Shown piece by piece: positions 8,842-19,509 of a stretch of DNA of 32,159 nt. This DNA is from Patescibacteria group bacterium. Its GTDB lineage: Bacteria > Patescibacteriota > Microgenomatia > UBA1400 > PJMF01. How positions within the stretch are numbered: the stretch's first letter is position 1; the number at the start of each line of letters is the position of its first letter. The translations under genes were made by a program, and so were the position numbers. A model generated the notes under the pieces. It was given only the letters and a program-made list of their open reading frames with translations, was not told where the DNA came from and did not search any database. The DNA lies in NCBI GenBank assembly GCA_018813375.1, contig JAHJBU010000049.1, forward strand, positions 1-32,159, given 5' to 3'.

Positions 8842-9661
8842 CCAAAATCGTCCAAGTATCACAGCTATTATTTTAGCTAAAAATGAGGCTGAGATGATTG
8901 TGAACTGTATTAATACTCTCTGGTGGTGCAATGAGATTTTGGTGATTGATTGTGCTTCCAGCGATGAGACTGCTAAATTGGCAGAAACTGCTGGAGCTAG
9001 AGTAGTTAGTTTTTCTCATCGCAGTATGGCTAAAACTAGAAATGAATCTTTAAAAAGAGTTAAAACTAATTGGGTTTTTTATGTTGATGCTGATGAGCGA
9101 GTTACGCCTACATTAGCTAAAGAAATTATGGTTCAGTTAGAAACTTCTTGCGCTACTGCTTTAAAAATTTCTCGCCAGAATGTTCATTATGGAAAAATTA
9201 TGCACCATGGTGGATGGGAAAAAGATTATGTGACGCGCGTATTTAATAAGGAGTATTTTCAAAATTGGTTTGGAGATATTCATGAAAGCCCTAAGTTTAA
9301 AGGGAAGTTATTAGAACTACAATCGCCATTAATTCACCTCACGCATCGTAACACCATAGATGGATTGACAAAGACTATTTCTTGGACACCAATTGAGGCA
9401 GATTTATTAGCCAAAGCAGGCTCAGGATCAGTTAGAGTTAGAACAATTTTGCGTAAGGGAATAATGGAGTTTGTGCGTCGAGGAATTTTTAAATTTGGTT
9501 TTAGAGATGGAGTCGAGGGTTGGATAGAGGCGATGGTGCAAGGGATTAATAGAATGTTAGTTTATATCCAGCTTTGGGAGAAACAGCGCAAGCCTTCTTT
9601 AGAGGATACCTATCAACAGATCGAACAAAAAATTTTAAAAATGTGGCAGGATGAAAAATGA
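8828..9661 (+). CDS. GT2 glycosyltransferase (WaaE/KdtX-like)
   Basis: IILAKNEAE, EILVIDCASSDET, WVFYVDADE, DIHES. Confidence 0.9.
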   Translation: MTKSNQNRPSITAIILAKNEAEMIVNCINTLWWCNEILVIDCASSDETAKLAETAGARVVSFSHRSMAKTRNESLKRVKTNWVFYVDADERVTPTLAKEIMVQLETSCATALKISRQNVHYGKIMHHGGWEKDYVTRVFNKEYFQNWFGDIHESPKFKGKLLELQSPLIHLTHRNTIDGLTKTISWTPIEADLLAKAGSGSVRVRTILRKGIMEFVRRGIFKFGFRDGVEGWIEAMVQGINRMLVYIQLWEKQRKPSLEDTYQQIEQKILKMWQDEK

Positions 9662-10752
9662 AAGCTTGCCTTTATTCGCCCTATATTCCCAAGCACGTTG
9701 GTGGTGGTGAAAAATACATGCTAGATGTAGCCTGCGCTTTGGCTAAAAAATATACAGTTTCTATTGCTATACCTCAACAATATGCAGGCGATGCCTCAAT
9801 AGTTAAAAAGTATGAAAGTTTTTTAAATCGTTCTTTGGATGATATTTCATTTATCCCTTCACCCTTGGGTTCAAAAACTAATTTTTTACAAAAACTTTTT
9901 TGGACTCGCCAATTTGATGTAATGTATTATCTAACAGATGGAAGTTTATTTTTTAGTTTGGCTAAGAAAAATATTTTACACATCCAATTTCCTTTGAAAC
10001 TGGACAAAAGTTCTTTTCTAGAGCAATTTAAATTAAAAAATTGGCAAATTAAAAATACCAATTCGGAGTTTACTAAAAAAGTGGTTGAAAGTACTTGGCC
10101 AACAAAGATTGATTTAGTGCACCACCCATTGGTTGATGTAGATGAAATTAACCGTATCACTGCGTCAATTAAGAAAGAAAAAATAATTTTAAATGTCGGT
10201 AGGTTTTTCCGCCAGTTACATAGTAAGCGACAAGATGTACTGATCGATATTTTTCGTAAACTAGTTATCAAATATCCTCTTGAAACAAAGGGTTGGAAAC
10301 TAGTTTTAATTGGTGCGGTGGAAGATCAAAAATATTTATCTCAAATTAAGCGCAAGAAAAGAGGTCTTCCGGTTGAATTTTATCATGATCTAGATAGAAG
10401 GAAATTGTTGGAATGGTATGGTAAATCCAGCATTTATTGGCACGCTACAGGATATGGAGTTAATCCAGAAAAACATCCAGAAAAAGTAGAACATTTTGGA
10501 ATAAGTACAGCTGAGGCTATGGCTGCAGGTTGTGTACCAATTGTCCATGGAAAAGGTGGCCAGCTTGAGGTGATAGGGGATGAATTAAATGACCTTTTGT
10601 GGCTCAAGCAGCAAGAGTGTGTTAAAAAAACTAAGCAAATTATCAGTGATCATAAGTTAAGAATGGAGTATCAGCGCAAAGCTAAACAGCAGGTGAAATT
10701 TTTTGGCAAAAATATTTTTGAGCAAAAATTATTTAAGATGATTAAATTATGA
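9658..10752 (+). CDS. GT4 (GT-B fold) glycosyltransferase
   Basis: GGGEKY, NSEFT, ILNVGRF, EHFGISTAEAMAAG (Ex7E motif). Confidence 0.92.
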   Translation: MKACLYSPYIPKHVGGGEKYMLDVACALAKKYTVSIAIPQQYAGDASIVKKYESFLNRSLDDISFIPSPLGSKTNFLQKLFWTRQFDVMYYLTDGSLFFSLAKKNILHIQFPLKLDKSSFLEQFKLKNWQIKNTNSEFTKKVVESTWPTKIDLVHHPLVDVDEINRITASIKKEKIILNVGRFFRQLHSKRQDVLIDIFRKLVIKYPLETKGWKLVLIGAVEDQKYLSQIKRKKRGLPVEFYHDLDRRKLLEWYGKSSIYWHATGYGVNPEKHPEKVEHFGISTAEAMAAGCVPIVHGKGGQLEVIGDELNDLLWLKQQECVKKTKQIISDHKLRMEYQRKAKQQVKFFGKNIFEQKLFKMIKL

Positions 10753-10770
10753 AAAAATAGGGTCCGTAAT

Positions 10771-11649
10771 ATGAAAAAGAAAAATTATACTGTGAGCGTG
10801 GTGATTCCAACATATTATGGTAGGAAGTTACTAGAGAAAAATTTTAGTTCAGTTTTAATATCGCTACGTGATGGCGATGAGGTGGTTATAGTTGATGACG
10901 GTGGGTTTAAAGAGACTTTGATGTGGTTGAAGAAAAGTTTCAAGTTAAAAAAAAGTGTTGAAAATAATGACTATGTTTTATATCTAGGAGAGTATCAACA
11001 AGCTAAGAAAAAAGTCGAAATTATTTATGTAGTTAATAAAACTAACCTTCGCTTTGCTGCCAATAGCAACCTGGGAGTGAAGTTAGCTAAGAACCCTTTA
11101 ATTTTTTTAGTTAATGATGACGTGAGTACTTATCCAGATACGATTAAAAAATTAGCTCCACATTTTAAAGATAAGAATGTTTTTGCAGTGGGATGCCTAG
11201 AGTTTGATCATGAACACAATGGGGCTAAAAGCGGCAAAAATAAACTTTGGTTTGAGAGGGGAATGTTTATTCATTCTCGTGGAGATGATTTTGAATTTGG
11301 TCCTACAGCTTGGGCAAGTGGAGGTAGTGCTATGTTTAGCAGAGATAAGTGGCTAAAAATTGGTGGGTTTGATTTAGCTTATTATCCAGCTTATTGGGAG
11401 GATATTGATTTATCTTATACTGCTCGTAAAAAAGGCTGGAAAGTTTTATTTAATCCAGAGGCTAAGGTAAGTCATAACCATGAAACTACCAACATTAATG
11501 TTTTTAAGCAAAGAAAAATAGAGCAGATGAGCTGGCGGCATGCTAATATTTTTACTTGGAAGTATGCTGATATCTGGCAAAAAATAGCCTATTTGCTGTG
11601 GAAGCCATACTGGTGGGTTCAACGCAAGCGCACTAAAATAAAATTATGA
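10771..11649 (+). CDS. GT2 glycosyltransferase (WbbL-like)
   Basis: VSVVIPTY, EVVIVDDG, FLVNDD, GGFDLAYYPAYWEDIDL. Confidence 0.88.
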   Translation: MKKKNYTVSVVIPTYYGRKLLEKNFSSVLISLRDGDEVVIVDDGGFKETLMWLKKSFKLKKSVENNDYVLYLGEYQQAKKKVEIIYVVNKTNLRFAANSNLGVKLAKNPLIFLVNDDVSTYPDTIKKLAPHFKDKNVFAVGCLEFDHEHNGAKSGKNKLWFERGMFIHSRGDDFEFGPTAWASGGSAMFSRDKWLKIGGFDLAYYPAYWEDIDLSYTARKKGWKVLFNPEAKVSHNHETTNINVFKQRKIEQMSWRHANIFTWKYADIWQKIAYLLWKPYWWVQRKRTKIKL

Positions 11650-13355
11650 CCTTAATTAAGCGCTATAGTAGTTTTTTATTGTTAGTTTTAGTTTTGTTTT
11701 CTTTTTCAATTCGTTTTTTGTGGTTGGATAGATCTCCCAGAGGTTTATTAATTGACGAAGCTCATTTTGGGTACATTTCTTACTCTTTAGTAGAGACGGG
11801 GAGAGACGAGCACGGAATTTCCTGGCCAATAGTATTCAAGGGTTTTGGTGATCAAAAATTACCAGTTCAAGCATATTTGTTAATGCCGTTTATCAAATTT
11901 ATCGGTTTAAATTCGGTTGCGGTGCGTTTGCCTTCGGCAATTGCAGGATCATTATTAGTGGTTGCAATCTATTGGTTATTGAGGGAATTTAAAATTAAGG
12001 AAGAATTAGCTTTATTTGGGGCATTAATTGTGACCCTAAGCCCATGGACTTTTATTTTGAGTCGCTTTGCATATGAGGCAAATATAGCTTTATTATTTTT
12101 TACTTTAGCAATAACTTTTTTATATAAAATTACACACAAAAAAGGCTGGCTATGGGCAATTATGTCAGCACTTTTAATGGCCTTAACTTGGTATACTTAC
12201 ATTGCTTTCCGTCCTATTACGTTGCTGTTCTCTACTGGATTTTTAATTTTTTTGTTAGCAACTAAGCAAATTAAATGGCAGAAGGCGATGCTGTTTGTGG
12301 TTATTTTTGGTGCCTTAGTAGCACCGCTTTTTCATTCTTCAATAGCTACTAGTTCAATAGCGCGATTTAACCAAGTCGGAATTGTAGCTGATGAGGGTTT
12401 AGTGATGGCAATTAATCAAAACCGGACTTTTTGTCATGATAAATTACCGCGCATCTTGTGCTATGGATTGTGGAATAAGCCACTTTACATTGGTAAAGAA
12501 TTAATCCAGCGTTTTGCAACCACTTATTCTTCACAGTTTTTGTTTACTGTCGGTGATGCTCAGCTTCGTTATCAATCAGTTGAGGATTTTGGGCAGTTCT
12601 ATTTAGTTTTATTACCATTGTTATTTTTGGGGACAATAGGGATTTTATTTAGGGTTGAGGCGCAATCAACCGCTAATAATGCGCGGGTGTTTGTGATATT
12701 GGGCTTATTGATTGCGCCTATTTCATCTATTTTAGCTGGGCAGCCACAGATGGTACGGTTGACGCCACTATTGCCTTTTTTGATTTTTAGCATGGCTTTA
12801 GGGCTACAAGTTTTTTGGCAGTTTTTACCAAAAGTTAGCTGGCAAAAAATTATTTGCGGAGGACTAGTAGCTATTTTTATTTTTTCAAGTCTCCCCTTCT
12901 TAGTTAATTTTTACACCATCCACACAGTTAAACATGATGGGGTTTATCAATCATATTTACCAGAGCTATTTGAGGTTTTGGATTCTTATCCTAAGCAGAT
13001 TTCAATTTATATTAAACCATTTTTCTCTGATCCGATTATGGCTTATGCTTATTATGGAAAAATAGACCCAGATCATTACCAAAAAAGTGTCCAGTTAGGC
13101 AAAATGGAGGAATCTGGTTTTCAGCACGCGATAGGCTTAGATAATTTCAAGGTTTCTGAGGAACCAATGGTAAATTTAGGATGTCGAGCAGTCAAAGAGA
13201 ATAAAGAAGCATATTACGTGACAAATGAAGAATTTAAAAGACCACCGATTGAATATTTGTATAGAGTAGCATCAGAAAACGGCGCAGTTTATTATGCTTA
13301 TATTTATGATGCAGCTGGGTATGCAATCAAACATCCAGAGTTGTGTTTGGATTAA
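11646..13355 (+). CDS. ArnT/PMT-like (GT-C) polytopic membrane glycosyltransferase
   Basis: DE motif in first loop (LLIDEAHFGY), ETGRDEHG, FKGFGDQKLP, VRLPSA, SRFAYEA; multiple TM helices and a soluble C-terminal tail. Confidence 0.85.
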   Translation: MTLIKRYSSFLLLVLVLFSFSIRFLWLDRSPRGLLIDEAHFGYISYSLVETGRDEHGISWPIVFKGFGDQKLPVQAYLLMPFIKFIGLNSVAVRLPSAIAGSLLVVAIYWLLREFKIKEELALFGALIVTLSPWTFILSRFAYEANIALLFFTLAITFLYKITHKKGWLWAIMSALLMALTWYTYIAFRPITLLFSTGFLIFLLATKQIKWQKAMLFVVIFGALVAPLFHSSIATSSIARFNQVGIVADEGLVMAINQNRTFCHDKLPRILCYGLWNKPLYIGKELIQRFATTYSSQFLFTVGDAQLRYQSVEDFGQFYLVLLPLLFLGTIGILFRVEAQSTANNARVFVILGLLIAPISSILAGQPQMVRLTPLLPFLIFSMALGLQVFWQFLPKVSWQKIICGGLVAIFIFSSLPFLVNFYTIHTVKHDGVYQSYLPELFEVLDSYPKQISIYIKPFFSDPIMAYAYYGKIDPDHYQKSVQLGKMEESGFQHAIGLDNFKVSEEPMVNLGCRAVKENKEAYYVTNEEFKRPPIEYLYRVASENGAVYYAYIYDAAGYAIKHPELCLD

Positions 13356-13358
13356 GTG

Positions 13359-14594
13359 CTATTGCATGTGAGCATACAGAGTCATAGTTCCGTCTTCATG
13401 AAAAACTCTAGCATGATTGCCCAGAGAGGTTGCCCCTCGGTAAAAATAGGCCACTCCTTTTTTAACAGATTTAATGGCTAGATTATTAGAATCTGCCATA
13501 TCAACCCCACGATGAAAATTACCCTGATAAACAGAAGAGTAAGGAGTATTTCCATAACACTGAGTAATTCTAGGGTTATTCATAGGCCAAGTTGAGCCAC
13601 CACTACCAATTGATTTTGAGATACCAGATGAAATATCATTGCAAGAGCGAGATTCAAAATAAACATTTTTTGAAATCAAGACAGAAAATGGATCCTTATT
13701 CCTAGAGAAGTAGTAAGAATTGCCGGCAAATAAATCATCATTTTCATCCTCTTTTAGATTAAAGTAGCTGAAATGCAAGTGAGGACCGGTTGAGAAGCCA
13801 GTGCTACCCATAAATCCGAGCACTTCTCCTTCAGACACTTCTCTTTTACCAGCGAATTTGGCATTAACTAATGCTTGTAGCTCAGCTTGAGCTTCAGACA
13901 AAAGTTGTTGATATCTAGATTCATCGTGTTTAGTAACAACTAATAAATATTCTTTTTCCTGTTTTTGATTAGCCAGAGCAATTCTTTGTGTCTCTAGTTT
14001 TTTTTCAATTATTTCTAACTCGTTTTGTTTTTCCTCTTTAAGATTTTTTTGTTCATCGTAAATCAAGCGTTGAGATTCAGCCCGATGCATGGCTTCTATA
14101 GTTTGTTTTTTAGCTAATTTAATGTATTTATACTCAGATAAAAAATTATTAATGGAGTTGCCTTTGAATAATAAAAATATTGGTTCGATTTGAGTTCGTT
14201 TATATTGCTCACTAACTCTTTTTACTAAAATTGAGCTAAGCCTATCTAAAGAAATATTTAGACCACCAATTCTCTCAGTTAATTCTTTAATTTCTTGCTG
14301 TAACTTTTGAATTTGAAATAAGGTCTGATTTATTTGTAGCTGTCCAATTGCAATATTTCCATCAATAATGCCAATGGTAGTACTAAGTGATTGCTTTTCT
14401 TGCTGTTTCTGGCTAACTAAATTACTACATTCGCTAATCGTATCTCGAAGACATTGTTGTTTATCATCGACATTTTCACAAGAATTAGCATCACAGCTGA
14501 CTCCATAAGCAAATCTAGGACTTAAAAAAATACTCAACCCAATTAATAAAAAAAAGATGCTGATAAACGAATGCTGTCGAATTTTATTATGCAT
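13359..14594 (-). CDS. Secreted coiled-coil plus M23 (LytM-type) metallopeptidase, probable FtsEX-associated peptidoglycan hydrolase; motifs in permuted order
   Basis: N-terminal signal-like hydrophobic stretch, ~200-aa Q/E/K-rich coiled coil, GFMGSTGFSTGPHLHF, FHRGVDM, GNHARVFHEDGTMTLYAHMQ; immediately downstream of ftsX. Confidence 0.88.
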   Translation of the reverse strand: MHNKIRQHSFISIFFLLIGLSIFLSPRFAYGVSCDANSCENVDDKQQCLRDTISECSNLVSQKQQEKQSLSTTIGIIDGNIAIGQLQINQTLFQIQKLQQEIKELTERIGGLNISLDRLSSILVKRVSEQYKRTQIEPIFLLFKGNSINNFLSEYKYIKLAKKQTIEAMHRAESQRLIYDEQKNLKEEKQNELEIIEKKLETQRIALANQKQEKEYLLVVTKHDESRYQQLLSEAQAELQALVNAKFAGKREVSEGEVLGFMGSTGFSTGPHLHFSYFNLKEDENDDLFAGNSYYFSRNKDPFSVLISKNVYFESRSCNDISSGISKSIGSGGSTWPMNNPRITQCYGNTPYSSVYQGNFHRGVDMADSNNLAIKSVKKGVAYFYRGATSLGNHARVFHEDGTMTLYAHMQ

Positions 14595-14598
14595 AATT

Positions 14599-15465
14599 TC
14601 ATTTCATCATCCTTTTTACCGCGGTCATTCCGGAAAATCCTCCCAGTAAAATAGCAATTAGGGTTCCAGTACTTAGTTGAATGGCAAAGATTTCCCAGGG
14701 TACCGGCAGTAGAGAAATCGTACCTAAGAAATTTTTTAGCCAGGGAGTTAGATAGAGTAGAGCAACAAACATTATTCCCCACCCAACTAAAGATCCCACT
14801 AATCCATAAATGACCCCTTCAAAGAAAAAAGGTGCTTTAATAAACCAACTACTGGCACCTAAGAATTTCATAATCTGAATTGCATTTTTTCGTTGTGTGA
14901 CCTTCATACTCACCAGAGCAGTAATAATTAAAAATGAAGTTAGTCCTAGAACCATTACTGCAGCGATGCCAATATACCGCAGAGATGTTGTCCAGTTAGT
15001 TAATGAGTCAACAATGTCTTGTTGGAAAACTACTTCCTCAATTTCATCTAAAGTTTCTAAGTCATTCTTGATTTGTACCAAAGACGAAATTTCATCTGCC
15101 GAGACCTCTATGCTCGCGGGTAAAATATCAGCAGTCACTAGCTCTAGTAATAACGGATCATCCTTATTCTCCATGCGGTAAACAGATAAAGCCTCCTCTT
15201 GAGTAATAAGTTTAATGTCATTGACATAAGATTTTTGTTGTACTTGCTGACCCACTTGATTAATCTCACTGGTAGAAGCATCTAGTTCAAAAAAGCCAAT
15301 GACCTGAGGTCTAGTTTCAAAATAATTCAAGATTTGTTGAGTGCCTAAAATTATTAATGAAAAAAAGTAGGCTACAAATAAAGTCATTGTAGTTATCACT
15401 ATGGCGGTCAAACTCTGAAAAGGTGAGCGGCGAATATTGGTAAAAGCTGAGGAAAGAGGGTTCAT
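14599..15465 (-). CDS. ftsX: Cell division permease FtsX
   Basis: 4-TM layout with extracellular loop, IMKFLGASSWFIKAPFFFEG motif, overlaps ftsE stop. Confidence 0.93.
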   Translation of the reverse strand: MNPLSSAFTNIRRSPFQSLTAIVITTMTLFVAYFFSLIILGTQQILNYFETRPQVIGFFELDASTSEINQVGQQVQQKSYVNDIKLITQEEALSVYRMENKDDPLLLELVTADILPASIEVSADEISSLVQIKNDLETLDEIEEVVFQQDIVDSLTNWTTSLRYIGIAAVMVLGLTSFLIITALVSMKVTQRKNAIQIMKFLGASSWFIKAPFFFEGVIYGLVGSLVGWGIMFVALLYLTPWLKNFLGTISLLPVPWEIFAIQLSTGTLIAILLGGFSGMTAVKRMMK

Positions 15466-16214
15466 TCTTTAATTTTCCTTTTTATTTTTTTCAGATTAAG
15501 CTTTTTCTTCTCATCCTTGAGTTTTTTTGGTTTGCTTTTGATTTTCTTTTTATGACTGTCAGATATTAGCTCGCCATCTTTTAACTCAATTTTTCTGGTA
15601 TCTTTTAAATCATCTAAAACCACTACGTCATGGGTAGCTAATAAAACCGTAGTGCCCAGCTCATTGATTTTTTTAAGGAGTCTAATAATAGATAAAGTTG
15701 TTTCTTGATCAAGATTGCCCGTGGGTTCATCAGCAAATATTACTGCTGGAGCAGTTGCTAGTGCTCGAGCAATACTGACTCTTTGAGCTTCACCGCCTGA
15801 TAATTCTTTTAGGAAAAGATTTGCCTTGTTTTCTAAATGAACGAGTTTCAATAGATCAGTGACTCTTTCCTCGATGTTTTTTTGTGATTTACCAGCAATT
15901 AAAAGAGGTAGGGCGATATTTTCCCAAACATTGGACTCAGGTAAAAGACGATAGTCTTGAAAGATTACTCCTATTTTACGGCGGTGATCTGGGAGTAATC
16001 TAGGTTTTATTTTTTCTAGATAAGTATCATTAAAAAGAATTCGGCCTTCATCGGGTTGATATTCCTTAGTAATTAGTCTCATAAGAGTGGTTTTACCACT
16101 CCCAGTGGGTCCAGTAATTAAAACTAACTCACCATCTTCAATTAGAAAACTAACTTTTTTTACTCCGTAGGTATCGTTAAAAAATTTTTTGGAGACTTTG
16201 TCAAAAATAATCAT
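15462..16214 (-). CDS. ftsE: Cell division ATP-binding protein FtsE
   Basis: Walker A GPTGSGKTT, RRKIGVIFQDYRLL, LSGGEAQR, ADEPTGNLD, ATHD; upstream of ftsX. Confidence 0.95.
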   Translation of the reverse strand: MIIFDKVSKKFFNDTYGVKKVSFLIEDGELVLITGPTGSGKTTLMRLITKEYQPDEGRILFNDTYLEKIKPRLLPDHRRKIGVIFQDYRLLPESNVWENIALPLLIAGKSQKNIEERVTDLLKLVHLENKANLFLKELSGGEAQRVSIARALATAPAVIFADEPTGNLDQETTLSIIRLLKKINELGTTVLLATHDVVVLDDLKDTRKIELKDGELISDSHKKKIKSKPKKLKDEKKKLNLKKIKRKIKE

Positions 16215-16274: not shown

Positions 16275-16826
16275 TTACTTGGCGCTTGGTGCTTGGCCTT
16301 CAAGATTTGTTATTTCAATTCTACCCACATCCATTAGCCAGCCAGCCTTTTGACCTTTAAAAGTTTCACCCCAAATTTTAACATCCATGCCGACAAATTT
16401 ATCTAGATCAGTAATAGAAGAGGTTAGGTAGACTGTTTGAGAAACTCCACCAGGCCTGATTAGTTTATGAGAGCCTTCGCCATCAATTCCTCCAGCTTCT
16501 AAGTAGCCTTGGGCTGAATCTTTAAATGTGTTTTCGTCTTGAACTCCAAATACATCACCAGTTTTGACCTGACCTTCTTGAGCTATTCGTTGCAGGCTTG
16601 ATGGACTAGGGAATAAGGCACTAGATTTATTTTTAAGTTTATAACCACCATAACCAGTGGCTGCTCCGGCTATTACTGCGATCACTCCTAAAATAATTAT
16701 AAGTTTGGGAAAATGAGGTGTCATAGGATTGTCATTATTATCGGTTAACAAGCTTTCGTCAACAGCTTTTTCTGCTGAGATAGCTTCTTCTTGTTTTTCT
16801 TCTTGCTTAAGTTCAATTTTATACAT
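16275..16826 (-). CDS. Hypothetical single-pass membrane protein with small beta-rich (possibly OB-like) C-terminal domain
   Basis: Acidic N-terminus, TM at ~aa 43-62, Gly-rich globular C-terminal domain; fold assignment is a guess. Confidence 0.75.
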   Translation of the reverse strand: MYKIELKQEEKQEEAISAEKAVDESLLTDNNDNPMTPHFPKLIIILGVIAVIAGAATGYGGYKLKNKSSALFPSPSSLQRIAQEGQVKTGDVFGVQDENTFKDSAQGYLEAGGIDGEGSHKLIRPGGVSQTVYLTSSITDLDKFVGMDVKIWGETFKGQKAGWLMDVGRIEITNLEGQAPSAK

Positions 16827-16858
16827 GTTTATATCATACTCATTTTATTTCTGGTTGG

Positions 16859-17950
16859 CTAGAGTTTTATGATTTCTTCTCTAATGAATTGATCTAAGTC
16901 ACCGTCTAAAACGCCAGCAGTATCTGAGGTTTCATATTTAGTGCGTGTATCTTTAACTAGTTGGTAAGGATGAAGGATATAGTTGCGGATTTGAGTTCCC
17001 CATGAGGCTTGTATATGTTTGCCCTTAACTTGGGCTAATTCTTGCTTTTGTTTTTGTTCTTCTTGCTTAGCCAAGATGGCCCTGAGTTTTTTTAAGGCTC
17101 TCTCTTTGTTTTGAATCTGGCTTCGTTCTTCTCTGCATTTAACAATGATTTTAGTAGGAACATGAGTCAGCTCAACTGCCGTGTTAACCTTATTCACATT
17201 TTGACCACCTGCTCCCCCAGAGCGGCTAAACTGCCATTGTAAATCACTGTTTTTTATTTCAATCTCTTTATTGTCTGATTCTATAAGTGGTAAAACTTCT
17301 ACTAATGCAAACGAAGTTTGGCGCAAATTATCAGCATTGAAAGGACTCAAGCGTACCAAGCGATGAGTGCCAGCTTCATGTTTTAAAAAACCATATGCAT
17401 AATTAGTACCAATTTCATACTCACAGCTTTTAATCCCAGCCTCGTCTCCACGCGATTCCAAGATAAATTGATGCTTCCAATTTTGTCTTTCAAAGTATCT
17501 CAGATACATTCGTTGTAGCATTTCTGTCCAGTCCATGGCTTCGGTTCCACCTTGTCCAGCGTGAATGGAAAGAATAGCTCCGCATGCATCATATTTGCCA
17601 TTTAGGAATTGGTTAAGCTCTAGATTTTTTACTTTGCTATGAAATTTTGGTAATAAAGAGATAACTTCTTTTTCAATACTGGCGTCATCGGCCTCTGTTA
17701 ATAACTCTATCATTGTTTGTAAATCTTGAGCTTGTTTTTGTACTGTTGTGATTTGATCTAGCTTAGATTGCAACTGCGCAATTTGTTGGGTTATTGCTTG
17801 AGCATCTGATTTATTCCAGAAATCAGTCTGGTAAGTTTGTTTTTGTAGCTTTTCAAGCTCGATTTTAATTTGTTTAATATCAAGACCAGCTAATATTTTT
17901 TTAGCTCTAGTTATGAGTTCATTGGATTTTTCTTGAGTCTGCTGGGTCAT
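16859..17950 (-). CDS. prfB: Peptide chain release factor 2 (continuous ORF; likely start ATG 17950 rather than TTG 17971)
   Basis: GQGGTEAMDW, HRLVRLSPF (SPF = RF2 specificity), SGGAGGQNVNK (GGQ), WGTQIRNY. Confidence 0.97.
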   Translation of the reverse strand: MTQQTQEKSNELITRAKKILAGLDIKQIKIELEKLQKQTYQTDFWNKSDAQAITQQIAQLQSKLDQITTVQKQAQDLQTMIELLTEADDASIEKEVISLLPKFHSKVKNLELNQFLNGKYDACGAILSIHAGQGGTEAMDWTEMLQRMYLRYFERQNWKHQFILESRGDEAGIKSCEYEIGTNYAYGFLKHEAGTHRLVRLSPFNADNLRQTSFALVEVLPLIESDNKEIEIKNSDLQWQFSRSGGAGGQNVNKVNTAVELTHVPTKIIVKCREERSQIQNKERALKKLRAILAKQEEQKQKQELAQVKGKHIQASWGTQIRNYILHPYQLVKDTRTKYETSDTAGVLDGDLDQFIREEIIKL

Positions 17951-17967
17951 TGAGCGTATTGTAGCAG

Positions 17968-19488
17968 TCAAGGAGTTAATTCTACGAGCGTATCTTTATT
18001 TAGCTCAAATGATTGAGCTTGGCCTTGATAAGAGACATTGTATAGGGTTGGTGGCAAGCCAGCTTGTTTTTGGATCCAGATTGCTTTCTGCCCAGGCTGC
18101 TCATAATGAGTGAAGTTAATCAAGAGTTTTTTAGATGATTTCTCTGGAATAGTAATTAGAAAACCAATTTGTTTGAAAGATTTATTTTTAGAATTAGTAA
18201 TTAATTCCTCATTCCAGTTAGTGATTTTTGAATTATCAAAAATAATGTCTTGAACATTAAAATTTGTAGGAACAATAAAACGTTGATAGTTCACATAGGT
18301 TAGGTGATTGGCTTGGTCTTTATTTTCATTACTAGTTGTTGGTGGATAATTGTGATTGGTAAAATCAACCTTAATTTGAGTAGAGAATTTTTCTAAGTTA
18401 ATAGTCACAGCTCTATCTAGGTGTTGATTAGCTTTATTAATACCAACGTTTGATTCCACTAACATTAAAGAAGTAGTATGTGTGTGTTTAGATAATTGTC
18501 CAGCAATCTGTAGTTTTTCAAAAATTAATTGAAGTTCTGGATCATGCGAGAAAAACTGGAGATCTTTATGCCAAGCACTGTTGATAATTTCTTTTGCTAG
18601 AGATTTTTGTTTTAATGTATCCAAATCCCCTAATTTAATAATTAGTTGATTAAAGAAAGTAGAAAGAAAATGCTGTTTTTGTTGGCTGCCGGGGAAAAAT
18701 AGATTTCTATCAACTCTGGCAATATCTGCAAAATTTTTATCTGTAACAATTTGATCATAATCTTTTATATATATCGGTCCTGTTATTGCTAAGATTTTTT
18801 CAACTATAGGCAAATTAACAGCAATAGCTCCATCAATACCCGCTTCTTTTCCCCAAGCTAGATAGGTTAAAATTTGTTGAGCACTAGTTGGAAAATCGGG
18901 GTGCCAATTGGCATCACGCAGTCTCAAGCCATCTCCTCCACTTAGGTATTCTTTTGCGCCAGTTGGAGCTTGGATAAACCAATTAAATTGACCATCGGGA
19001 ACATAAATATCTTGGATTTCAAAAGAAGTTAGCACACCTTCATCTAACTCTAGTTTTGCATAAGAACCAAGAAAACCACCTGTTGCTCTAAGTTCTTCAC
19101 TATTTTGAAATAATAAAACATAATTTTGTTTTCCAGTTAGAATTTTCTCCGCAATAACGGCTAGGTCTTGTCCAATGGTGAGTTGGTCATATAGTTGATC
19201 ATATTGATTTTTAATAATTTTTTTAGCCAACCATGATTTCTGACTTTGATTAATAAAAGTATTAAGAGTTTGATCAAGTTTGATTAAATTAGTTTTTAAT
19301 TCAACTGCATTGGTTTGTTGTTTTTTTGGATTATCAATAAAGATATTTTGTCCATAATTAGTTGCGCTAATTAGAGTTTGCTGGGAAATTTTTATTAGTT
19401 TTAAACTAGTCAAAGCTAGCTTTAGAGTTGGAAGTGAAAATCCAACAAAAATTATCAATAAAAGAATAATAATCCACCTGGATTTCAT
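17968..19488 (-). CDS. DUF4012-type membrane-anchored protein (likely start ATG 19488)
   Basis: N-terminal TM; YVLLFQNSEELRATGGFLGSY, LRDANWHPDFP, VESNVGINKAN motifs. Confidence 0.85.
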   Translation of the reverse strand: MKSRWIIILLLIIFVGFSLPTLKLALTSLKLIKISQQTLISATNYGQNIFIDNPKKQQTNAVELKTNLIKLDQTLNTFINQSQKSWLAKKIIKNQYDQLYDQLTIGQDLAVIAEKILTGKQNYVLLFQNSEELRATGGFLGSYAKLELDEGVLTSFEIQDIYVPDGQFNWFIQAPTGAKEYLSGGDGLRLRDANWHPDFPTSAQQILTYLAWGKEAGIDGAIAVNLPIVEKILAITGPIYIKDYDQIVTDKNFADIARVDRNLFFPGSQQKQHFLSTFFNQLIIKLGDLDTLKQKSLAKEIINSAWHKDLQFFSHDPELQLIFEKLQIAGQLSKHTHTTSLMLVESNVGINKANQHLDRAVTINLEKFSTQIKVDFTNHNYPPTTSNENKDQANHLTYVNYQRFIVPTNFNVQDIIFDNSKITNWNEELITNSKNKSFKQIGFLITIPEKSSKKLLINFTHYEQPGQKAIWIQKQAGLPPTLYNVSYQGQAQSFELNKDTLVELTP

Positions 19489-19509
19489 ATATAGACATTG
19501 TGCCACAAA

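Follow-up and report, generated by a model that had tools for sequence, protein, structure and literature searches.

A coiled-coil protein encoded directly after ftsEX in Patescibacteria carries a circularly permuted M23 domain

Contig JAHJBU010000049.1 of a Patescibacteria group bacterium (assembly GCA_018813375.1) was analyzed over a stretch of 32,159 nucleotides, referred to here as the window. Its minus strand holds an operon in which ftsE and ftsX, which overlap by 4 nt at the start of ftsX, are followed by a third gene encoding a protein of 411 amino acids (aa). That protein is a homologous, permuted variant of the M23 peptidases and not a standard member of the family. The data described below make it probable that the third gene of the ftsE-ftsX operon encodes a secreted coiled-coil protein of the EnvC/PcsB type that bears a genuine circularly permuted M23 zinc peptidase module. 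The genes of the operon and the parts of the 411-aa protein are as follows.

15462..16214, minus strand: ftsE, first gene of the operon, encoding an ABC ATPase (open reading frame [ORF]; Pfam ABC_tran, E = 1.1e-35)
14599..15465, minus strand: ftsX, encoding a permease with four transmembrane segments and an extracellular domain at residues ~48-160 (Pfam FtsX_ECD, E = 5.1e-13; FtsX, E = 2.9e-11)
13359..14594, minus strand: permuted M23 gene (411 aa; P0001), starting 4 nt past the ftsX stop codon and ending with TAG at 13361-13359
14502..14594, minus strand: signal peptide or anchor, residues 1-31, with a basic n-region, a hydrophobic helix, and ...AYG|VS (sequence by eye; AlphaFold2 [AF2] helix at residues 2-24)
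14427..14495, minus strand: four-Cys motif of C34, C39, C48, and C56, residues 34-56, at the mature N terminus (sequence)
13863..14423, minus strand: antiparallel coiled coil like that of EnvC, PcsB, and RipC, residues 58-244 (AF2; Foldseek; NCBIfam EnvC)
13758..13862, minus strand: normally C-terminal third of M23, residues 245-279, V..G..LG..GSTG.STGPHLHF with H272 and H274 (Pfam profile positions 57-88; PDB alignments)
13596..13757, minus strand: linker, residues 280-333, made up of a remnant of the canonical C terminus (..NKDP..) and a lineage-specific insert, with C318 (homolog alignments)
13362..13595, minus strand: normally N-terminal two thirds of M23, residues 334-411, WP..ITQCYG..H361xxxD365...YAH409

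The Pfam profile Peptidase_M23 (PF01551) matched the 411-aa protein with 57.4 bits (cutoff, 28.7 bits; E = 1.7e-15), and it did so in two stretches. Searched against the DNA, profile positions 57-88 fell on window positions 13761-13868 (E = 1.3e-7) and profile positions 2-58 on 13347-13517 (E = 2.7e-8), both on the minus strand. The profile breaks cleanly at position 57/58, and the 57-88 piece precedes the 2-58 piece in the protein. A phmmer search of PDB chains aligned residues 334-410 with residues 219-295 of 3slu and residues 252-276 with residues 304-328 of the same structure. The linear order HxxxD, YxH, HxH that runs through the profile and the solved structures is not followed by the 411-aa protein. 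A sequence-only reading of this DNA had proposed an HxH motif, about 85 aa with two Cys, an HxxxD motif, and a YAH-stop terminus, and this series was borne out, as were the residue numbers H272, H274, H361, D365, and H409. The two Cys of the H274-to-H361 spacer are C318 and C346, and the range marked in that reading, 13359-13860, is exactly the permuted domain plus the stop codon. The reading had further predicted two partial M23 matches in swapped order and had stated that standard hidden Markov models (HMMs) would see only two half matches; the Pfam M23 profile returned just these, with 57-88 upstream of 2-58.

Linker residues 280-333 connect the old C terminus of the M23 domain to its old N terminus. 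The spacing of ~85 residues between H274 and H361 is a lineage-specific elaboration (linkers between the blocks measure 14-37 residues in relatives and 14-55 over the whole family). At its far end the protein reads ...LYAHMQ and then TAG, so that the chain stops 2 residues past H409 of the YxH motif. A convergent gene (11646..13355, plus strand) has its stop codon only 3 nt from that of the permuted M23 gene, leaving no space for a missing C-terminal block or any further coding sequence. An alternative genetic code or stop codon read-through was considered and rejected: the downstream DNA is taken by the convergent gene, and homologs end at the same residue. Among the 120 best homologs, a regular expression placed HxH before HxGxD in 100 and found the reverse order in 0; of the remaining 20, 18 failed the strict expression and 2 had a different domain. 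The C terminus reads ..LY.H.Q in nearly all of these 120 proteins.

The catalytic residues were conserved throughout. H272, H274, H361, D365, and H409 are invariant in 56 homologs, and in 47 diverse permuted domains H272, H274, D365, Y407, and H409 are invariant, with H361 at least 90% conserved. We take H361 and D365 of HxxxD to be the His and Asp zinc ligands, as in LytM; HxH presumably supplies a catalytic His and the third zinc ligand, and YxH presumably supplies a catalytic His. The swapped profile and PDB alignments and the family-wide conservation of these residues support the earlier claim of a circular permutation in which all zinc ligands are kept. For residues 225-411, AF2 (76-sequence alignment) gave one compact domain with a pLDDT of 93.9, a pTM of 0.90, and a pLDDT of ~97 over the HxH block. 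A structure prediction of the domain by itself had been proposed as a check on whether the halves belong together, and in this model they yield a single confident fold. The permuted domain is 127-167 aa long in the family, and the minimum of 127 aa is about the size of a single canonical M23 domain.

Cysteine pairs also suggest contact between the two halves. A Cys in loop 262-269 of the HxH half is always accompanied by a Cys in loop 381-393 (28 of 28 cases in the domain-only profile A4; 9 of 9 in the whole-protein profile A1), and sequences without a Cys in loop 262-269 have either 0 or 2 Cys in loop 381-393. This co-occurrence implies a disulfide that would bridge the halves in relatives of the window protein. 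The window protein's own subfamily pairs C318 with C346; both are present in 40 of 56 homologs, and neither is present in the other 16. Judging from the pTM of the model, the invariance of the residues, and the covarying Cys pair in relatives, H272, H274, H361, and D365 would form one Zn site. The permuted domain would also bind Zn and have endopeptidase activity.

The permuted domain is widespread in the phylum. At E ≤ 1e-10, the whole-protein profile A1 matched 336 of the 401 Patescibacteria genomes that were sampled, and the end points of the matches sorted them into three classes. Ninety fetched loci were classified with three local HMMs, one each for coiled coil, HxH block, and HxxxD..YxH block; the permuted order was found in 30 of 30 top loci (L086 being the window itself), 20 of 20 loci in the class matching the coiled coil and HxH block, and 20 of 20 weaker ones. 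Profiles were used for these surveys, as a single-protein search of the 401 genomes splits short-linker permutants in two. The domain-only profile A4, built from 47 sequences, matched 89 of the 401 genomes at E ≤ 1e-18, of which 9 matched by the N-part only; the 80 that remain (among them the unpublished G154) and 20 further verified genomes place the permuted order in at least 100 of the 401. ORFs were counted as permuted when their architecture had been checked or when the match lay at the C-terminal end of a frame of ~360-450 aa.

Outside Patescibacteria, A4 was searched at E ≤ 1e-16, a threshold beyond which divergent permutants could be missed, against 391 genomes from the phylum of a Dehalococcoidia locus (14 matches, none collinear) and 391 genomes from the phylum of a Lachnospiraceae locus (30 matches, none collinear). 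All matches in those 782 genomes begin at profile position 34 or later, which corresponds to canonical N-parts. In a library of 1.84 billion representatives, 257 proteins matched the permuted-domain profile at E ≤ 1e-30. The best 149 of these (P0121-P0269) comprise 61 permuted proteins, 54 of them with a coiled coil, and 88 tandem arrays of canonical M23 domains (N-C-N-C, some triple), in which the junction from the first C-part to the second N-part (C1-N2) matches the permuted profile collinearly. Since such junctions mimic the profile, a collinear match alone is no proof of permutation. The pattern S[TS]G[PAS]HLHF, searched in genome contigs, mostly returned canonical M23; 3 of 80 loci (L006-L008) were family members, and the others served as canonical controls. 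The distribution of the permuted form is wide and apparently lineage-restricted.

Gene position and predicted structure both point to a link between the permuted protein and FtsEX. A survey of ftsX-adjacent genes had been proposed in the earlier reading; ftsE-ftsX lies directly upstream here, and 65 of 70 permuted ORFs are preceded on their own strand by an ftsX that ends no more than 900 nt away. Of three FtsX-family (PF02687) matches in the genome, the ftsX at 14599..15465 is the one that adjoins the permuted M23 gene. In the full-length AF2 model, helices 70-134 and 148-221 form a hairpin and helix 225-243 runs into the first beta strand of the domain, which joins the coiled coil to the catalytic domain without a long flexible linker. 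Foldseek ranked three kinds of FtsEX partner at positions 1 to 3 and 7 for this model, with weak E values of 3e-3 to 5e-2: EnvC from FtsEX-EnvC (8tzl_E) and from EnvC-FtsX (6tpi_A), RipC from FtsEX-RipC (8idc_E), and PcsB (4cgk_A). The NCBIfam EnvC equivalog (NF008644) scored 28.1 bits against a cutoff of 270 and covered only the coiled coil, residues 47-240. The Pfam family CC_PcsB (PF24568) is precomputed on many homologs and was found on relatives that share the scaffold.

A complex of two FtsX extracellular domains (residues 46-162) with residues 58-250 of the permuted protein was predicted with a score of 0.42, against 0.01 for the best of three controls. Support for binding from this score is weak: of 80 solved complexes 58 reach the mark, as do 2 of 110 mismatched pairs, and only 7 of the 80 reach it with a score of 0.60 or less, as do both passing mismatches. 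At least 77% of contacts agree between the runs, and the pLDDT of the partner is at least 72. No match to Amidase_3 (PF01520) was found in the bacterium's own genome, which is 99.4% complete, so that an amidase activator role of the EnvC kind would be without a target.

Comparison with EnvC (E. coli, V. cholerae, P. aeruginosa) shows the same general layout: a gene adjacent to ftsEX, a signal peptide, a long antiparallel coiled coil, and a helix running into a C-terminal LytM/M23-type domain. The LytM domain of EnvC differs in that it has the canonical order, is degenerate, lacks Zn ligands, and activates Amidase_3, as described in PMC11627006. The window protein, in contrast, is permuted and has its five residues intact, no Amidase_3 was found in its genome, and its equivalog score is far below the cutoff. 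In this it may resemble PcsB (S. pneumoniae), CwlO (B. subtilis), and RipC (M. tuberculosis), in which the coiled-coil protein is itself the hydrolase. That class is described in PMC11627006 as autoinhibited: the coiled coil is bound by FtsX, and its movement in the course of the FtsE ATPase cycle frees the hydrolase. The catalytic domains of PcsB, CwlO, and RipC are CHAP or NlpC/P60 cysteine peptidases and not Zn-dependent M23 domains.

Intact M23 domains beside ftsEX are not themselves new. At 14 loci outside the phylum, coiled-coil M23 genes of canonical order with intact HxxxD, YxH, and HxH motifs lie directly after ftsX. Those of Bacillota and Actinomycetota (L018, L023, L042, L082) share the operon position, the coiled coil, and the motifs with the window protein but keep the usual HxxxD..YxH..HxH order and have the coiled coil at the conventional N terminus of the domain. 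The suggestion that the protein is a distinct type of FtsEX partner therefore holds for the permutation, which sets it apart, and not for an intact M23 domain next to ftsEX, which is common elsewhere; the novelty is the permutation. In LytM, lysostaphin, and other M23 enzymes of solved structure (2b0p, 4lxc, 9gy1, 3slu), the HxH block is the last third of the domain. Here it is the first part, and sequential aligners therefore see only ~60% of the fold. Natural permutants that keep their catalytic residues are also described in another peptidoglycan peptidase superfamily, NlpC/P60 (YaeF/poxvirus G6R, LRAT), in PMC6403190, although fold and chemistry (papain-like, Cys-His) are unrelated.

In the mechanism that we favor, the HxH-bearing strand-loop-strand (H272, H274) is fused straight to the end of the coiled coil. 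The linker then runs on to the point where a canonical domain begins (WP..ITQ.YG, H361xxxD365), and both halves would fold into a single domain with a single Zn site. On the model of EnvC, PcsB, CwlO, and RipC, two extracellular domains of FtsX would flank the coiled-coil hairpin; as FtsE binds and hydrolyzes ATP, the coiled coil would shift and release or activate the peptidase, and the freed peptidase would cut peptidoglycan cross-links at the division site. The hydrolase would be the permuted protein itself, acting as a Zn endopeptidase. The coiled coil enters at the strand toward HxH and the chain ends 2 residues past H409; both points would lie beside the active site. FtsX binding, autoinhibition, and its release are inferred from these characterized partners. 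The four-Cys motif, in which C34, C39, C48, and C56 are Cys in 35, 41, 30, and 20 of 56 aligned homologs, may cap the coiled coil and be stapled by disulfides. That the protein is a lipoprotein was considered and rejected, as no lipobox precedes C34 by eye.

Several results weigh against this interpretation. A Foldseek search of the PDB with the domain model (m15a390767555) gave nothing at E ≤ 1e-3 and no M23 structure among the matches listed. An exhaustive VIA-align search with the same model did, unlike Foldseek, return M23 structures, and in these alignments only model positions 106-187 were placed, on the first ~75-80 residues of each target, as sequential aligners must do with a permutant. 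H-x(5-12)-D stands in place of strict HxxxD in 15 of 72 permuted ORFs, and from these residues some members of the family may be degenerate. Such spacing, together with large inserts in the N-block, marks a divergent permuted subgroup (L156-L175). Five of the 70 permuted ORFs have no adjacent ftsX. The predicted FtsX complex may have passed through memory of, or likeness to, the solved EnvC-FtsX structure and not through binding. Finally, the tree of the re-ordered blocks rests on 113 columns, and its blocks were aligned to HMMs from permuted sequences.

That tree (132 rows) bears on the origin of the family. The free quick search needs three label changes, and the tree with all 54 permuted rows together has an lnL 52 above that of the free search (p-AU = 0.919), which does not reject a single origin; the test is weak, given so few columns and HMMs derived from permuted sequences. 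The permutation may have arisen once, within Patescibacteria. Most likely, an M23 domain was duplicated in tandem and the outer halves were then lost; tandem M23 arrays are common, which makes such an ancestor plausible and shows that the state presumed to have come before the permutation occurs in nature. The tandem proteins of the library were dropped as close ancestors, as Pfam shows generic architectures (BlaR1-M56 with two M23 domains, lysozyme-CHAP with two M23 domains). At L116-L130, in genomes of the same order and class (P0022, P0024), the same coiled-coil scaffold lies beside ftsX and a Peptidase_C39_2-like domain replaces M23; 7 of 8 scanned ORFs fetched for this class were above the Pfam cutoff. 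Over the coiled coil, which makes up 59% of its length, P0022 is 78% identical to the window protein. On the same scaffold, an ORF in L130 has CHAP, and canonical M23 order was found in five Patescibacteria loci and one Saccharibacteria locus. Catalytic modules seem to have been swapped on a conserved lever.

Tandem paralogs were seen at two loci. At L162 (G137), two adjacent permuted genes follow ftsX, and at L149 (G343), a permuted gene is directly preceded by a coiled-coil M23 gene in which the N-block comes first.

A bolder version of the favored mechanism is conceivable, though we think it rather unlikely. The permutation would then be no neutral rewiring but a single ancient Patescibacteria innovation that changed FtsEX control, with ATPase-driven movement of the coiled coil assembling or distorting the Zn site or swinging helix 225-243 out of the groove. 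If true, divisome hydrolases would have a new allosteric mode, unlike the release of a tethered, preformed domain in EnvC, RipC, and PcsB, and the protein would be naturally designed as a metallopeptidase with a mechanical gate.

The permuted domain might instead be a non-enzymatic regulator like EnvC, NlpD, and DipM, whose groove activates another hydrolase despite the catalytic residues. EnvC, which comes closest among characterized FtsEX partners that have a LytM domain, acts as an activator (PMC11627006), the genome contains other M23 proteins, and the divergent subgroup departs from strict HxxxD spacing. The five catalytic residues are nevertheless conserved family-wide, whereas the EnvC LytM domain is without Zn ligands (PMC11627006). 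The lack of an Amidase_3 match in the 99.4%-complete genome and the 28.1 bits (of 270) to the EnvC equivalog, over the coiled coil only, likewise make a regulator improbable.

Slightly less probable still is a domain-swapped dimer, in which the HxH half of one protomer would pair with the HxxxD/YxH half of another and dimerization on FtsEX would be the switch. PcsB crystallizes as an intertwined, self-inhibited dimer (PMC11627006), and a flexible linker would in principle allow a permuted chain to swap. Against this, the monomer was modeled confidently as one domain (pTM 0.90), linkers down to 14-19 residues are common, and EnvC and RipC bind FtsEX as single chains (PMC11627006).

We give little credence to the view that the halves are decayed leftovers of two tandem M23 domains, a C-part and an N-part without a shared Zn site that make up a dead appendage. 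Tandem canonical arrays are common, and their C1-N2 junction is collinear with the permuted profile (88 of the best 149 library proteins). A dead appendage does not fit with catalytic residues conserved over a family present in at least 100 of 401 genomes, a single compact domain predicted with high confidence, Cys pairs that covary across the halves, or a minimal domain of 127 aa. An extra N or C block, moreover, was found in 0 of 72 permuted ORFs.

That the swapped order is an assembly or gene-calling artifact or a truncation has a negligible chance of being correct: the exact protein is recorded on 4 contigs, the same order recurs in at least 100 genomes, the convergent stop lies 3 nt away, and the junctions are covered, without an indel or joint, by independent contigs from three other studies (X4 record 5, window positions 13230-14433; X5, 13500-14700; X6, 13528-14183). 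A further contig, X2, spans everything but may be the source of the sequence. Misassembly or truncation, which the sequence-only reading had named as grounds for abandoning the permutation, is excluded by the homologs and the independent contigs.

Elsewhere in the window, three genes of glycosyltransferase type (9658-13355, plus strand) converge on the peptidase gene; they encode Glycos_transf_1 and Glycos_transf_2 proteins and a PMT/PMT_2-like membrane protein of 569 aa. Upstream of ftsE, 16275-19506 on the minus strand holds a 183-aa ORF without a Pfam match, a class I release factor (PCRF and RF-1), and a DUF4012 protein. In the same genome, a 1316-aa open frame has two separated M23 matches (G000:C72:4746-5690, minus strand), and a 253-aa frame has a full canonical M23 domain (G000:C23:18677-18967, minus strand; profile positions 2-96).

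M23/LytM domains are among the most studied cell wall enzymes and regulators and include the antimicrobial enzyme lysostaphin. Patescibacteria are ultrasmall and largely uncultured, and their division machinery is poorly known. Searches of the open literature on M23, LytM, and lysostaphin and on FtsEX/EnvC in Patescibacteria (Candidate Phyla Radiation) gave no description of a permuted M23 domain. Source annotations call family members EnvC, CwlO-like, DD-metalloendopeptidase, or generic M23. The permuted M23 domain is conserved and, it appears, has not been described before as a variant of the enzymes that are thought to cleave the cell wall during division. The permutation blinds standard tools, which give two half matches (Pfam) or none (Foldseek), and surveys in which M23 domains are scored by how much of the whole profile they cover will count too few of these proteins or annotate them wrongly. 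Along with the many tandem M23 arrays, the family documents a likely duplication-and-trimming route to permutation. Since at least one in four of the Patescibacteria genomes sampled has the permuted form, and nearly always right after ftsEX, it is probably the main septal hydrolase of Patescibacteria. Further, because the coiled coil meets the domain beside the catalytic residues, these proteins lend themselves to testing how force passes from FtsEX to a hydrolase.

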